Below are positions 9,614-14,237 of a stretch of DNA of 14,237 nt, in pieces. The notes under the pieces were generated by a model. The model was not told where the DNA came from and searched no databases. It saw only the letters and a list, made by a program, of their open reading frames with translations. The position numbers and the translations under genes were made by a program. Positions within the stretch are counted from its first letter, which is position 1, and each line of letters begins with the position of its first letter. Origin of the DNA: Candidatus Aenigmatarchaeota archaeon (lineage in GTDB: Archaea; Aenigmatarchaeota; Aenigmatarchaeia; QMZP01); NCBI GenBank assembly GCA_039091855.1, contig JAWCLA010000016.1:1-14237 (forward strand). Reading direction: 5' to 3'.

Positions 9614-10032
9614 AAAATAATATTGGATGTGCCTTGCTATATCTTTAAATAAAGAATTCCACCGGTCTGTGACCGGTGGTGGGTATGGGCTTGGCCCATC
9701 CCAAAAGTCACCATCAGCAGTTCCCCAAAAACCACATCTTAATGATAAACAAATGTTTTATCGCCAATTAACACTGCTCGCCGAAATTCCACCAGTCTTA
9801 TTCACCTATTGCATGTGAATGGTGGACAGGCGAGCGGGCAAATTAACGTATTTAAAAAACTTTGCATAATGTTCATAAAAGCCAAAGGCCATTATTCGTG
9901 ATGCCCCTGATTTGGTGAGAAACATCCTGTCAGTCCGCAATGGTTCTCCCAATGAATTCCTTCGACCTCCCACATAAAAATAGGTCTTGAATTCGCTTCT
10001 ATAAGATTCTACATCTAAGCTAAAAATAAAAA

Positions 10033-10474
10033 GGTGTGCCCTGCATAGCCCATTTTCTGTAGGCCGATAACAGTTGCCTGTTAAATCGGCTGGCAACATT
10101 TGTCTGAGCGTAATCGCCCGAATGACAGCCTTATCAATTCTGTTACCGTCAAACGATTTTCGACTTGCACCCGCGCATCGCAGGAATATTTCACCTGTAG
10201 CTGGCAAAACAGCCTGCCTTCTTTACTCGATATTGCTATCTCATTGCTCCGGACAGTCAGTTTGTTTCTGCCCCTGCGAATGCTTCTCAGCATTTGCCTC
10301 GCGGCAATGCGCTAACACTGGTTAGAAGGTTGTTCTCTTGGAAGGCAGTTAATAACCTTCCATTTTAACGCCTTCTTTCCAGGTTTGGGTGAATGGAGCT
10401 TCCTCACCTCTGCCATTTTATTGGCAGGAAGCAAAGCTTCCTCTACGAGGCGGCGTTGCCTGCAGGGCTCACCC
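10033..10474 (-). ncRNA. rnpB: RNase P RNA
   Basis: Minus strand: P1 GGUGAGCCCUGCA/UGCAGGGCACACC; P2 GGCAAC/GUUGCC; CR-I GAGGAAGCUCCAUU pairs with CR-V ACAGAAAAUGGGCU (P4); P5 CACCC/GGGUG then CAAG; P7 GCGCAU/AUGCGC; P8 UGCC-GCGA-GGCA; P9 AAUGCU-GAGA-AGCAUU; CR-II CAGAAAC; CR-III GGUGAAA; followed by an oligo-T tract. Confidence 0.92.
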
Positions 10475-10495
10475 AATTAAAAATAAAAACGTGGG

Positions 10496-10503
10496 TTTAT
10501 AAG
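10496..10503 (-). promoter_or_regulatory. TATA box for RNase P RNA
   Basis: Minus-strand CTTATAAA lies 22-29 nt upstream of the P1 5' end. Confidence 0.55.
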
Positions 10504-10540
10504 CATTTAATAAGGTCTATACATATTTATCAATAGGTTT

Positions 10541-11098
10541 ATGAAAGCCGGAATTTTGCGCGATTTTTGGAATTTCCATGACTTTATACTATTGGCAATA
10601 AGTTTTATTGCTGCCTTGTTTATAATCACGTCAGAGCCTTTTTCGGATTTCGTCTCGAACCTTGGGGAAATTGAATACATCGGTGTTTTCGTTTCAGGAA
10701 TGCTCTTTTCGTATGGCTTCACCACCGCCCCCGCTGCATCTGTGCTTTTTGTATCCTCAAAAAGCCTGAACCCTTTCCTTGTTGCACTTATTGGGGCTAC
10801 AGGAGCAATGTTTAGCGATTACCTTATGTTCAGGTTCTTCAAGGGCGAATTTCTTTCAGAAATCAGGCATTTATCTGACAGGTTTCACTTCCACCCGCAC
10901 CTAAACAACACAATTCACAGGATTGCAAACAAGATGTCTTGTGTTATTGGCGGGCTTATTCTGGCTTCACCCTTGCCTGACGAGCTTGCAGCCTCTTTCT
11001 GCGGCTCAATAAGAATGGGTACAAGGAAATTCACAATGATAGCGTTTGTCTTCAAGTTTTTTGGTATATTATCAATAGCGCTTTTGGCTGGATTATAA
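10541..11098 (+). CDS. Multi-pass membrane protein, DedA/VTT (SNARE-associated)-like
   Basis: Several hydrophobic helices with ALIGATGAMFSDYLMFRF and LASPLPDEL...GSIRM...KF motifs. Confidence 0.7.
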   Translation: MKAGILRDFWNFHDFILLAISFIAALFIITSEPFSDFVSNLGEIEYIGVFVSGMLFSYGFTTAPAASVLFVSSKSLNPFLVALIGATGAMFSDYLMFRFFKGEFLSEIRHLSDRFHFHPHLNNTIHRIANKMSCVIGGLILASPLPDELAASFCGSIRMGTRKFTMIAFVFKFFGILSIALLAGL

Positions 11099-11313
11099 AG
11101 TGCCGCTTCAATTATTGAAAAATACGGTGAGCTATCCTTTTGACTAGGACCGGTCGGGGATTGGTGGCAGTGAGCTGAACATCTCGGAAAACCTTGATGC
11201 TTACACCCCTGCTCCATCAACCCTGTCGTCTACAGGACCCTCCTGCCCTCACCGACAGTCGCCTGCCAGCTTGAGCAATGACTGCCTATTTTTGGGGACG
11301 GCTTCACGCTTAG

Positions 11314-11429
11314 TTAGGCCTGGAACAAGGCAATGAATTATAAGCTGCAACTGAAGTGCAACTTTCTCTTTATGGAAGCTTCCCATTTCCAACATTCCTT
11401 TCTACGTATTAAAAAGCCTTTTTTCCAGA
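11314..11429 (-). other. 23S BHB intron, 116 nt (after ~U2754, H97)
   Basis: Helix AGGC/GCCU, bulges AU|U and AA|C; splicing restores GGCAUCUAAGC. Confidence 0.88.
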
Positions 11430-11473
11430 ATGCCTTCAGCGCTTATCCGTTACGGCTTAGCTACTCGGCGTGC

Positions 11474-11508
11474 TTTCATCGAAAGACAGAGTTTTAACTG
11501 TCAATCGC
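11474..11508 (-). other. 23S BHB intron, 35 nt (H96, ~2703); carries the shared motif
   Basis: Helix UCAU/AUGA, bulges AG|G and AA|G, both flanks paired. Confidence 0.8.
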
Positions 11509-11678
11509 CTATGACAACCGATACACCAGAGGCCGCGACTCCCCGTTCCTTTCGTACTAAAGGAATCTTCCCCTCAGGCAATCCGCACCTTCAGTAGATA
11601 AAGACCGTACTGGCTCGCACCGTACTTAACCCAGCTAAGGTGACTCTTTGATGGGTGAACACCCCCACCCTTGGGCGC

Positions 11679-11735
11679 TTGCAGAAGCCCTTCTTTTAGA
11701 AAAGAAAAGGCTTTGGGTTCAAAAAGAAAGGCTTA
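11679..11735 (-). other. 23S BHB intron, 57 nt (after ~A2534, H91 loop)
   Basis: Helix GCAG/CUGC, bulges CA|U and AA|G; splicing restores GUGCAGCAGCGCCCAAGG. Confidence 0.88.
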
Positions 11736-11792
11736 TGCTGCACGCCCAGGAAGAGCCCAGCCGACGGCGGAGAAGCAACGAACGCGGTCGAT

Positions 11793-11822
11793 TTGTCCTG
11801 ATTATTTTGAAATATATATCAT
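11793..11822 (-). other. 23S BHB intron, 30 nt (after ~U2477, H89 loop)
   Basis: Helix GUCC/GGAC, bulges AU|A and AA|A; splicing restores GAGAGUCCAUAUCGAC. Confidence 0.9.
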
Positions 11823-11887
11823 ATGGACTCTCGCGCGCCACGACTCCATTATCCCCGTGGTAGCTTTTCTGACAGGTCCGGCCCCCA

Positions 11888-11952
11888 TTCTTATCGAAAG
11901 ACGACATCATTCATTAACGATTCAACCCTTATTACGCGAGCCGTCAATCGAG
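11888..11952 (-). other. 23S relaxed-BHB intron, ~65 nt (H88, ~2407); carries the shared motif
   Basis: Helix AUUA/UAAG (3 of 4 bp), bulges AU|C and AA|U; boundaries uncertain by about 1 nt. Confidence 0.7.
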
Positions 11953-12003
11953 ATTAATGAGGCACGGAAGATCGCTAGACCACGCTTTCGCGTTAGGACC
12001 CCT

Positions 12004-12072
12004 TTTAACCATCCTATCTTCTTTCCGTCAACGCTTTCTTGTGAAAGCGAAAGCTTCCGGAAGAAAGGGTTG
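12004..12072 (-). other. 23S relaxed-BHB intron, 69 nt (H86 loop, ~2361)
   Basis: Helix UGAC/GUUA, bulges AA|C and AA|A; exon-side stem GGACCUU/GGGGUCC; intron-side flank weak. Confidence 0.78.
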
Positions 12073-12123
12073 TTGTCAAAGGTCCTATCAGACCTCCTTT
12101 TGCTCTTACGCTCTTCTCCAGAT

Positions 12124-12189
12124 GTTCAGGGGAAAGACAGCTACCAATAACAAAAAACTGTTAATGATGTGATAAGCCATCAATCCACA
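12124..12189 (-). other. 23S BHB intron, 66 nt (after ~2310, H84 loop); carries the shared motif
   Basis: Helix UCAG/CUGA, bulges AA|U and AC|A; splicing restores GGUCAGAAAUCUGG. Confidence 0.88.
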
Positions 12190-12227
12190 TTCTGACCTGG
12201 ATGAGGAGATCTTTGGGCACCTCTGAT

Positions 12228-12257
12228 TTCAATGGATTGCAAAACCCTTTGCAATCG
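12228..12257 (-). other. 23S relaxed (BHL-like) intron, 30 nt (H81 loop, ~2272)
   Basis: Imperfect helix CAAG/AUUG with cuts AG|C and AA|A; 9-bp stem GAUUGCAAA/UUUGCAAUC; removal restores the expected loop length. Confidence 0.7.
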
Positions 12258-12312
12258 CTCTTGTCAGAGGTGTACCGCCCCAGTCAAACTGCCCACCTGA
12301 CGCTGTTCCCCA

Positions 12313-12347
12313 CTCTCCTCGAAAGACGTATAGAAACGTCAAACGAA
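12313..12347 (-). other. 23S BHB intron, 35 nt (H79 region); carries the shared motif
   Basis: Helix CUCU/GGAG, bulges UG|U and AG|U; an alternative register shifted by 1 nt is possible. Lies in a variable region. Confidence 0.68.
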
Positions 12348-12625
12348 CAAGAGGTAAGCAATATGAAGAAGATAGGGTGGTGTTACATTGGCGCCTTAGC
12401 AGTGACTGACGCCACTGCTGCATTGCTCCCACCTACTCTATACGATCCCCTTCATATCACAACATCAAGCTGCAGTAAAGTTCAACGGGGTCTTCTCGTC
12501 CCACTGAAGGTCTCCTGAATATGCACAGGACCATTAAGTTCACTGGGTATCGGCCCGGGACAGCGGGGATCTCGTTAAGCCATTGATGCAGGTCGACAAT
12601 TAATCGACAAGGGATTACGCTACCT

Positions 12626-12678
12626 GTATCCAGAAACGGCGTTTTATCACCGCCTTTCGGCTCAAGTGACCATTTCTT
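12626..12678 (-). other. 23S BHB intron, 53 nt (after A1927)
   Basis: Helix GUCU/GGAU, bulges UA|A and AC|A, both flanks paired; splicing restores CUUAAGGUAGCG. Confidence 0.92.
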
Positions 12679-12693
12679 TAAGACGGTCAGAGT

Positions 12694-12728
12694 TTGCGGA
12701 GGAAAACAACTTTAAAGCTGTTTTACCC
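12694..12728 (-). other. 23S BHB intron, 35 nt (after ~A1912, H69 loop)
   Basis: Helix GCGG/CCGC, bulges UA|G and AA|A; splicing restores GGCGGUAACUCUG. Confidence 0.9.
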
Positions 12729-12841
12729 TACCGCCGCCGTTTACCAGGGCTTTGCTCCGTTGTACCGGAGTTTAACCGACTGGCACTGGGCAGGCCTCAG
12801 GAGCTATACGTATCGTTTCCGATCAGCAGCCCCCTAAGTTT

Positions 12842-12887
12842 ATTAACGACATTCTTTCTATTTGAGGTCTTTCTTTGAAAGAAGTCA
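12842..12887 (-). other. 23S BHB intron, 46 nt (after ~A1784, H65 loop)
   Basis: Helix UAAC/GUUA, bulges AA|U and AU|A, both flanks paired; splicing restores CUGUUUAACAAAAAC. Confidence 0.9.
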
Positions 12888-12961
12888 TTGTTAAACAGTC
12901 GTACCCCCCTTGTAACTGCGACCTACTGATCCCAGCTGAGCTGAGGCAGTAGGCACCCCTT

Positions 12962-13011
12962 TTCGGCCGAAGAAGGCACTCTTACTATTTTCGCTTCGCC
13001 TTCATTCTCGT
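12962..13011 (-). other. 23S BHB intron, 50 nt (after ~1699, H62)
   Basis: Helix CGGU/GCCG, bulges AU|A and AA|A, both flanks paired; splicing restores CUUCGGUAUAAGGGG. Confidence 0.9.
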
Positions 13012-13033
13012 ATACCGAAGATACGGGGCCAAT

Positions 13034-13937
13034 TTAGGCTGGATATAGAATCAAAATGAAATATTAAGTTTTCCCTCAACAAAACTATTAAGTTCTTTTT
13101 TATTGTTTATTCGCTTTATGCATTCTAACAGAAAATTGTTGGCTTCCTCAATTGATTTAAAATTTTTATTAATCCAATTGGATTTTTCTCTTAGCATACC
13201 ACAGAAAATCATCATTTTCACAACATCGTTTTTTGTGAAACCATTGAACAATTTGCCTCTTCGAACTTTTGACTCTTCAAGGAATCCCACAGTTTCATGG
13301 AATTTTTTTATTTCATACGAATTCTTTATGATGAATCCTGTCTCTTTTTCGATAGGGTTCAATCCAACAATTTTAAATATTTTACGCATCTGTTTTTTTA
13401 TTTTGGGATTAGTACACCCAATTTTGATGCCCATATGCAATTGTATTATATTCCTATCTTTTCGCTTGTAGACAGAAAATTCCGGACCACCATCACAAGT
13501 TGCATAGTATCTGAGGAATTCCTTTGAATTTTCTATTGAAAAGCACTCTTTAGGTATTCTTGTGGATGGGTATTGTAAATCTTCTGATTTTTCAGGATTC
13601 TTTGGATGGATATTAAATGCCCTCATTCTGAAAGATGGTGTAAATTCGGTTAATAGATTCACAAGCTTTTTTGAATTAACCTTTGCCCTGTAGGAGTTCG
13701 CATGTTTGTTAATCTTCCAGTTGAGCTTAATATCGGCGATTTCATTAAACTCCTCTATCAACCTCATTACAACATCTTTGTCTTCCGTAAATGAAACTGT
13801 ATATCTTTTTAGATCTACTGAACCATCTGATAGAAGCACAGCAATTAGTTTTAATATTTGCATCATAAGCCCCGTACTATATTCAGTTTGCTTATTTATA
13901 AATACGGGGCTTACTGGACGAATGATTCTATATCCAT
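13034..13937 (-). mobile_element. 904-nt archaeal BHB rRNA intron carrying a homing endonuclease (after ~A1677)
   Basis: Perfect 14-bp terminal inverted repeat (13040-13053 / 13923-13936); helix AGGC/GCCU; bulges AA|A and AA|A; splicing restores AGGCAAAUUGG; AT-rich ORF inside. Confidence 0.93.
13051..13866 (-). CDS. Double-motif LAGLIDADG homing endonuclease (intron-encoded)
   Basis: Motif 1 LIAVLLSDGS and motif 2 FLRYYATCDGG about 110 aa apart, both keeping the catalytic Asp; SKKLVNLL linker; Lys/Ile-rich. Confidence 0.9.
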   Translation of the reverse strand: MMQILKLIAVLLSDGSVDLKRYTVSFTEDKDVVMRLIEEFNEIADIKLNWKINKHANSYRAKVNSKKLVNLLTEFTPSFRMRAFNIHPKNPEKSEDLQYPSTRIPKECFSIENSKEFLRYYATCDGGPEFSVYKRKDRNIIQLHMGIKIGCTNPKIKKQMRKIFKIVGLNPIEKETGFIIKNSYEIKKFHETVGFLEESKVRRGKLFNGFTKNDVVKMMIFCGMLREKSNWINKNFKSIEEANNFLLECIKRINNKKELNSFVEGKLNISF

Positions 13938-14043
13938 TTGCCTAATTCCCTGGACCGATTTCTCCCAACACACCTTCCCCTTCTCAGGGAGGGGCACCAG
14001 TAACGGTTCTCGGTACGAGTGGGAGATTCCTTACCGGTTTCCT

Positions 14044-14080
14044 GTGTGAGAAAAGGCATGTAGCCAGCCATGCCCTTTCC
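14044..14080 (-). other. 23S BHB intron, 37 nt (after ~A1571)
   Basis: Helix GUGA/UCAC, bulges AA|G and AC|A; 11-bp stem GAAAGGGCAUG/CAUGCCUUUUC; splicing restores CCGUGAAAAGG. Confidence 0.92.
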
Positions 14081-14237
14081 TTTCACGGGCTCCAGGAATC
14101 AGCAGAACCTGCATAACAGGCCATTCCCAAATTTGCCTGTTTCTCACCATTATGGTACTCCACAGGCTTGAAAGGTTAGATGCACAGAGTGCACTCTACC
14201 TATCCCGAAGCGTCAGAAACCAGTCCTGCGTTGCCGC

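Follow-up and report, generated by a model that had tools for sequence, protein, structure and literature searches.

Introns bounded by bulge-helix-bulge (BHB) motifs are short, ORF-less inserts in the tRNA and rRNA genes of archaea, and the relaxed ones are cut by (alpha-beta)2 and epsilon2 endonucleases. Families of tRNA introns have moved between sites in the Thermoproteales, i.e. by intron transposition. BHB-dependent maturation is also found in rRNA processing stems and in the permuted SRP RNA of Thermoproteus. The RNA of RNase P is a ribozyme of universal occurrence; its type M archaeal form, found in Methanococcales and Archaeoglobus, is without everything distal to P15, and in type A RNase P RNAs a GGU in the 3' strand of L15 binds the 3' end of the tRNA. 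The available text of PMC5829648 lists BHB motifs in pre-tRNA, pre-mRNA and pre-rRNA, and that of PMC3655853 describes a shortened RNase P RNA in a nanoarchaeon, which is not an intron. No report of an intron in RNase P RNA was found in full-text searches of the literature, which covered few subscription journals.

In the genome of a Candidatus Aenigmatarchaeota archaeon, 46 nt inside the RNase P RNA gene (rnpB) are quite probably a BHB-type mini-intron. This segment is seated in the P15 loop, at 10157-10112 on the minus strand of the window, which is the whole stretch of 14,237 nucleotides that was analyzed (contig JAWCLA010000016.1, assembly GCA_039091855.1). It agrees with the archaeal tRNA and rRNA introns in being a short insert without an ORF, in the four-position helix of exon and intron strands, the opposite 3-nt bulges, the cuts after the second base and the exact joining, and in the presence of endonuclease and RtcB genes in the genome. 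Unlike those introns, it is hosted by a ribozyme RNA, that of RNase P, has no outer helix, contains an invariant A.G among its helix positions, and shares a conserved inner stem with inserts in the rRNA. Support is thus found for an intron of a known kind, in a host RNA without a precedent among the reports searched, and belonging to a recognizable family that the 23S gene shares.

The other systems named above show partial likeness to this locus. Near-identical short BHB introns at different sites and genes of one genome are seen here as in the Thermoproteales tRNA introns; unlike that case, the family spans 23S rRNA and rnpB and belongs to a DPANN-type archaeon, and its motif also occurs in other genera of the order. 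Like type M RNAs, the spliced RNA and the genes of 6 of 11 sister genera have a mini-hairpin at P15, without L15 or P16, but in the genus studied here the gene still has an arm of 36-46 nt, which is removed at the RNA level and not missing from the DNA. As in the rRNA stems and the Thermoproteus SRP RNA, the tRNA splicing machinery would act on a structural RNA other than tRNA. In those cases ends are trimmed or re-joined, whereas here an internal piece leaves the catalytic domain of a ribozyme.

The window is contig 8 of a genome assembly of 0.69 Mb in 38 contigs, which is 84% complete. It contains the 3' half of the 23S rRNA gene (11142-14237, minus strand; 805 bits with the Rfam LSU model), and rnpB is located about 670 nt downstream on the same strand. 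The rnpB gene occupies 10034-10472 and is 439 nt long in the DNA, as delimited by P1 pairing, alignment to congeners and Rfam. P1 is formed by GUGAGCCCUGCA at the 5' end and UGCAGGGCACAC at the 3' end, and the 5' end was placed through this pairing and the alignment to four genes of the same genus. The Rfam model RF00373 matches 10034-10360 (E = 1.7e-13, 52.5 bits, below the gathering score of 84), and the 5' third of the model is misaligned because of extra arms, falling onto an extra arm of 76 nt. Among the 41 genomes searched with this model, the gathering score was reached in 13, and E <= 0.001 in 34. The identity of the gene is marked by P1, the CR-I-like GAGGAAGCUCC, P5, P7-P12, CR-IV and CR-V. 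Rpp30, Rpp29, Pop5 and Rpp21 are all encoded elsewhere in the genome; therefore, RNase P is a working system in this organism.

Several other features of the locus may be recorded. The 76-nt arm lies between P5 and P7 (10316-10391, minus strand), where the congeners have 17-50 nt, and an extra P3 hairpin, GGAAGC-UUU-GCUUCC (about 10424-10440, minus strand), is present in the window and not in the congeners. In three relatives of the order, too, rnpB follows the 23S gene on the same strand, with spacings of 30, 105 and 329 nt, and this conserved linkage hints at co-transcription with the rRNA operon. Hairpins of a second type, UUGAAGGUG-loop-CACCUUC, recur among the congeners: two have them within rnpB, in the P12 region and in the 3' arm, and in two congeners they are found in the 5' flank of the gene. 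They may represent another family of inserted elements.

Evidence from RNA was obtained from a hot-spring community metatranscriptome (two runs of one study), of which the assembled contigs were placed on positions 9700-11140. In one run (X1), 37% of the sampled rnpB words are present, and one contig of 234 nt, with a depth of 4.2, was found on the minus strand. Letters 1-164 of this contig correspond to 10320-10157 and letters 165-234 to 10110-10041, with 0 mismatches over 164 + 70 nt; there are no gaps or additional letters, and exactly 46 nt are skipped. The skipped segment is 10157-10112 or equally 10156-10111, with a 1-nt ambiguity at an A. The junction is therefore a direct observation: in this single contig, from one of two runs, the 46-nt segment is absent and the exons are joined exactly. 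Assembled contigs of this kind show that the spliced form is present, and not how much unspliced RNA exists. The second run (X2) gave no contig over 9700-11140 and is not evidence for or against.

Exon 1 (10158-10472, minus strand) ends with ...GCAAG-UCGA-AA and is covered by the RNA contig over 10157/10158-10320, its remaining part (10321-10472) being without cover from any contig. Exon 2 (10034-10111, minus strand) starts with A-CGCUCAGACAAAUG, includes CR-IV and is covered over 10041-10110/10111, which leaves the last 7 nt up to the predicted 3' end of RNase P RNA without cover. The spliced sequence reads ...GCAAGUCGAAAA-CGCUCAG.... The initial annotation of this DNA, made from the letters alone, had placed a candidate intron inside RNase P RNA and named the junction in RNA as the check; when this check was run on the metatranscriptome contigs, the junction was found without mismatch, joining 10157/10158 to 10110/10111, and at least this RNA form lacks the segment. 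The details of its prediction needed correction. It had expected a 48-nt removal, for which the 3' cut fell as predicted, but 46 nt are skipped in the RNA, with the 5' cut displaced by 1-2 nt in the 3' direction. Its junction, ...GUCGAA-CGCUCAG, did not hold, as the RNA has two more A's (...GUCGAAAA-CGCUCAG).

The other end of the RNA contig, at 10320, falls inside the 76-nt P5-P7 arm, and no reason for this was found. BHB frames were examined there for a second intron ending at the contig stop, and no convincing candidate was seen.

The structure around the skipped segment can be read directly from the minus strand, which runs GCAAG-UCGAAAA-UCGUUUGACGGU-(15-nt loop)-GCUGUCAUUCGG-GCGAUUA-CGCUCAG; the letters quoted for 10111-10158 in the initial annotation are all present as given. 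The exon strand UCGA (10160-10163) pairs with the intron strand GCGA (10114-10117; GCGA in 5 of 6 distinct sequences and GCGG in 1) in a central helix of three Watson-Crick pairs, U:A, C:G and G:C, followed by A.G. This four-position helix separates the 5' bulge AAA (10157-10159) from the 3' bulge UUA (10111-10113; AUA or UUA in relatives) on the opposite strand. The inner helix consists of UCGUUUGACGGU (10145-10156), which carries the family motif, and GCUGUCAUUCGG (10118-10129), both within the intron; it begins directly with UCG/CGG (U.G, C:G, G:C) and is continued by GACGGU/GCUGUC. In BHB cutting, the middle base of the bulge attacks, through its 2'-OH, the phosphate of the third base, i.e. 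the cut falls between the second and third bases, according to the available text of PMC12397907. In the register 10158/10157 and 10112/10111, each cut is located after the second base of its bulge, exactly 2 nt 3' of a central-helix strand.

The outer helix is a single G:C pair and in essence absent, in line with the imperfect flank that the initial annotation had conceded, and the flanking helices found on both sides of a canonical hBHBh' motif are lacking. The rnpB motif fits a relaxed BHB, not a canonical one. At least three of four central pairs combined with at least three inner pairs, used as a loose definition of a BHB, occur at 290 of the 45,081 possible cut pairs in the gene (0.64%); therefore, a random deletion would rarely agree with it. 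The true site is not the top-ranked BHB candidate of rnpB by structure, and structure alone would not have singled out the intron.

The same geometry is repeated in the 23S gene of the window. At least 14 inserts were found in its 23S half in comparison with the archaeal LSU model, and cuts were placed near the insert borders of the model alignment, independently of rnpB; the inserts are candidate introns. Clean BHB frames were found at 12888-12841 and 11822-11793, both with 4/4 central helices, and the insert at 12678-12626 has a 4/4 central helix and an inner helix of 9 bp. Three candidate introns on the minus strand share a family register with rnpB: 12313-12347 (35 nt), in an H78-like hairpin, with CUCU UG/U UCGUUUGACG...CGUCUUUCGA GGAG AG/U; 11888-11952 (65 nt), with AUUA AU/C UCGAUUGACGG...GUCGUCUUUCGA UAAG AA/U; and 11474-11508 (35 nt), with UCAU AG/G CGAUUGACAG...CUGUCUUUCG AUGA AA/G. 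For the first of these, the Rfam LSU model has 3 letters where the gene has 37. A fourth, looser member is located at 12124-12189 (66 nt, minus strand), with UCAG AA/U ..GGAUUGAUGG...CUGUCUUUCC.. CUGA AC/A.

In this register, the cut is followed by one base, (U)CGWUUGAC...GUCWUUCG(R), four helix bases and two bulge bases, and then by the second cut; it is observed in identical form in rnpB and the three 23S inserts 12347-12313, 11952-11888 and 11508-11474, with 12189-12124 as the looser fourth. When the register is carried to rnpB, it predicts a 46-nt intron at 10157-10112, which is the segment skipped in the RNA. The agreement of these two independent lines is the strongest argument for BHB splicing. 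The GUCG/CGAU helix proposed initially exists, but it is one base off the register of the 23S inserts, and the shared register gives UCGA/GCGA.

Kinship between the rnpB segment and the 23S mini-inserts proved stronger than the initial annotation had claimed, as the inner stem was found at this register in four of the 23S inserts. The identity that it had noted with the 23S insert 12313-12347 was confirmed: the 10-mer TCGTTTGACG is exact at 10147-10156 and at 12337-12346, and it occurs with one mismatch at 11942-11951, i.e. 3 matches vs 0.41 expected, a number reached in 1 of 200 shuffles. The 8-mer GTCTTTCG is exact at 11480-87, 11895-902 and 12320-27, all in 23S inserts. Its 1-nt variant was reported for rnpB, and the letters are indeed present at 10119-26, but taken alone, and with one mismatch allowed, this 8-mer does not exceed chance (14 found vs 9.8 expected).

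By the model, the 23S inserts measure 49, 962, 48, 41, 54, 37, 34, 67, 69, 68, 32, 58, 40 and 119 letters; a further 34-nt insert is located near the 3' end, and many of the inserts are in conserved hairpin loops. An ORF of 271 aa (13051-13866, minus strand), for which a Pfam search gave no match, lies in the 962-nt insert (about 13925-12964). A K-turn reading of the shared stem was rejected by eye, since tandem G.A pairs are missing and the loop consists of UUU/UUU or UUU/AUU.

The strict stem pattern has 4 hits in this genome and 4 in 3 of 40 related genomes, with 0 for a reversed control pattern. More hairpins with this stem or a similar one (..GAUUGACG...CGUCUUUC..) were seen on contigs 15, 18, 26, 37 and 38 of the genome. 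The one on contig 18 lies in an intergenic unit of 82 nt that is duplicated in tandem with 95% identity (L038:537-618, 645-726), and those on contigs 37 and 38 are two hairpins in near-identical contexts. No host RNA was reported by Rfam around the motif copies on these five contigs and in the 3 other genomes, and ARAGORN gave one doubtful tRNA there, on the opposite strand. The motif is absent from the tRNA introns detected by ARAGORN.

Comparison with relatives gives a view of the site in the DNA. The genus set comprises 6 distinct rnpB DNAs, taken from the window, from four species genomes and from one metagenome contig; a seventh row is a metagenome contig that nearly duplicates one of the 6. 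The frame UCGA-AAA...GCG(A/G)-(A/U)UA-CGC is kept in 6/6 distinct DNAs with inserts of 36-46 nt, and the predicted spliced products are identical across this stretch. The first three pairs of the central helix hold in 6/6, and the fourth position, A.G, is unpaired in 6/6. In the genus alignment, 78.7% of cells are paired vs 27-42% with partners slid, and compensatory changes on both sides are found at 4 of 16 pairs overall and at 4 of 12 in the inner helices. This covariation supports a hairpin, and it would fit a native hairpin as well as an intron hairpin.

Outside the genus, the gap between GCAAG and CGC is 7-9 nt in 6 of 11 other genera of the family and 19-42 nt in the other 5. The short sequences of the 6 genera are CCGAAAAGG, CCGUGUGG, CCAAAAGG, CAGUAAUG, CCGUGAGG and CCUCGGG. 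The spliced product of the window, 7 nt (UCGAAAA), aligns with these mini-hairpins, including a GAAAA loop in one genus. Thus, within the family a mini-P15 would be the usual state, and the long arm a peculiarity of this genus. It is the wider family, not covariation, that separates an intron from a native arm. The initial annotation had named presence or absence in relatives as a check; the arm is not conserved across the relatives, with a short site in 6 of 11 other genera, and within the genus the insert is present, and covarying, in 6/6 DNAs. In another genus of the family (L030, of genome G020), a 42-nt arm at the same site fits a BHB frame by eye (CGAA AA/A ... UUCA GU/A), which would leave a mini-P15 of 8 nt; it may represent either this intron or another at the site.

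The genome encodes candidates for both steps of splicing. An EndA of 408 aa (contig 19, L032:129-1355, plus strand) has two matches to the endonuclease catalytic domain and an N-terminal domain, and its full length aligns with PDB 4fz2 (E = 1.5e-97). PDB 4fz2 is the epsilon2 endonuclease of Ca. Micrarchaeum (PMC3488258, available text), and the 408-aa protein appears by homology to be an epsilon-type (three-unit) splicing endonuclease. The epsilon2 enzyme is reported to cut relaxed BHB motifs, and as of 2018 the type was stated to be known from Ca. Micrarchaeum only (both in the available text of PMC5829648). A second EndA, of 198 aa, is encoded on contig 12 (L031:1204-1800, plus strand), so that this Aenigmatarchaeota genome has both an epsilon-type endonuclease and a further EndA. 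RtcB is also encoded (561 bits). Genes for a putative endonuclease of the type that acts on relaxed motifs and for an RNA ligase are thus both observed directly in the gene content.

Few tRNA genes could be recognized. ARAGORN found only 4 in the whole 0.69 Mb, of which 3 are interrupted by introns of 56-88 nt, and the Rfam tRNA model found nothing at the gathering score in the whole genome, its best match having 26.1 bits. Most tRNA genes are probably disrupted past recognition by these tools, or unassembled.

The removal of the segment may be described as follows. In the precursor, UCGA of the exon would pair with GCGA of the intron to form the four-position central helix, with the two 3-nt bulges, AAA and UUA, on opposite strands, and the intron-internal hairpin (UCG...CGG, then GACGGU/GCUGUC) would close the inner side. 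The broad-specificity epsilon-type endonuclease of the genome would cut after the second base of each bulge, and RtcB would ligate the exons. The mature RNA would be left with the 7-nt mini-P15 (UCGAAAA), as in the intron-less genes of sister genera, and the intron would belong to the family also seated in the 23S rRNA gene of the same contig. We infer the identity of the cutting enzyme, the choice between the two registers 1 nt apart, the fate of the excised intron and the role of the spliced form as the active RNA. This BHB reading is weakened by its dependence on one contig (depth 4.2), by the relaxed character of the motif and by the weak mini-P15 left after splicing, which has about 2 base pairs.

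A native P15-P16 arm that is retained in the functional RNA, with the skip as an artefact of reverse transcription or assembly or as a minor by-product, is the alternative that the initial annotation itself had named. In the RF00373 alignment the segment takes the place of P15/P16, within the genus the arm is both conserved and covarying, and in another family of the order one genome carries a 37-nt arm at the site, with directly opposed loops and no staggered bulges. P15 in its GUCG/CGAU form exceeds the spliced mini-P15 in stability; the folding energies (-10.7 kcal/mol for the BHB fold, -12.2 for the P15 fold and -13.9 for the MFE) do not favour the BHB fold and do not discriminate. Assembled contigs also drop variants. 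This alternative is contradicted, however, by the RNA contig and also by the 7-9-nt mini-hairpin with which 6 of 11 genera manage at the site. The sole assembled RNA form is without the arm. This one contig accounts exactly for the depths in the two bins around the skip (1.63 and 2.83), so there is no assembled RNA over the skipped part. The deletion is staggered: it keeps GUCGAAAA, i.e. the 5' helix strand and the A-rich loop, and removes CGAUUA, and a loss of the 3' strand and two further bases with the 5' strand kept is the stagger of a BHB, not a polymerase jump across a stem. The direct repeat at the borders is at most 1 nt, which argues against template switching at microhomology. Moreover, the 3' strand of L15 would be G in 2 sequences or AAG in 4, not GGU. 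Retention of a native arm is accordingly regarded as unlikely.

Two further explanations accept that the segment is missing from the RNA and place the cause elsewhere. The source is a community metatranscriptome, and the RNA might have come from a co-occurring strain with an insert-less rnpB, in which case the organism of the window would splice nothing. The contig is, against this, identical to the window at 234/234 positions, where the congeners differ widely; the insert is kept in all of the distinct genus DNAs, and its loss in a near-identical strain would be a rare event, which, if precise at the BHB cut sites, would itself point to an intron. Exon strings were also scanned for such a DNA. 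The 30-nt string matched 0 metagenome contigs, and the 20-nt string matched 3 metagenome contigs (2 congeners with the insert and 1 chance match in a bacterial gene) and 4 genome contigs (3 congeners with the insert and 1 chance match), so that these scans, in which the records of the window's own genome were possibly not included, contain no insert-less allele. Carry-over of genomic DNA is argued against by the empty flanks, as 23 of 30 bins have zero depth, including the whole of 9700-9993 (3' flank) and 10484-11140 (spacer to 23S). A strain of this kind is very unlikely to be the source. Lastly, the segment might be removed by a route other than EndA and RtcB, e.g. by other nucleases and a ligase, a thought that the relaxed BHB, with A.G in its helix and no outer helix, would allow. 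The stagger of the cuts and the family register nevertheless agree with BHB rules, the genome has an endonuclease of broad-specificity type and RtcB, and no self-splicing intron family is reported here by Rfam. Such a route is considered highly improbable, and splicing of a BHB-type mini-intron is preferred as the explanation.

A wider reading can be put forward only tentatively, as possible rather than probable: a mobile family of BHB mini-introns, with the stem CGWUUGAC/GUCWUUCG and a U-rich internal loop, may have spread across 23S rRNA, RNase P RNA and probably other hosts, order-wide in Aenigmatarchaeota-like archaea. If this is true, the conserved stem would serve to recruit a factor aiding cutting or re-insertion, and the heavy load of introns would explain both the near-lack of tRNA matches and the low score of rnpB. 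RNase P biogenesis in the lineage would then need the tRNA splicing machinery. Covariance models under-score rnpB and miss almost all tRNAs in this genome, and annotation of small archaeal genomes therefore needs awareness of splicing.

If the intron is real, the host range of BHB introns would be extended to a catalytic RNA, and the family would allow the movement of introns between unrelated RNA genes to be traced. The enzyme that trims the 5' ends of tRNAs would be made only after the enzymes of tRNA splicing have processed its RNA. Thus, the need of RNase P RNA to be spliced first would link two systems of tRNA processing in this organism.
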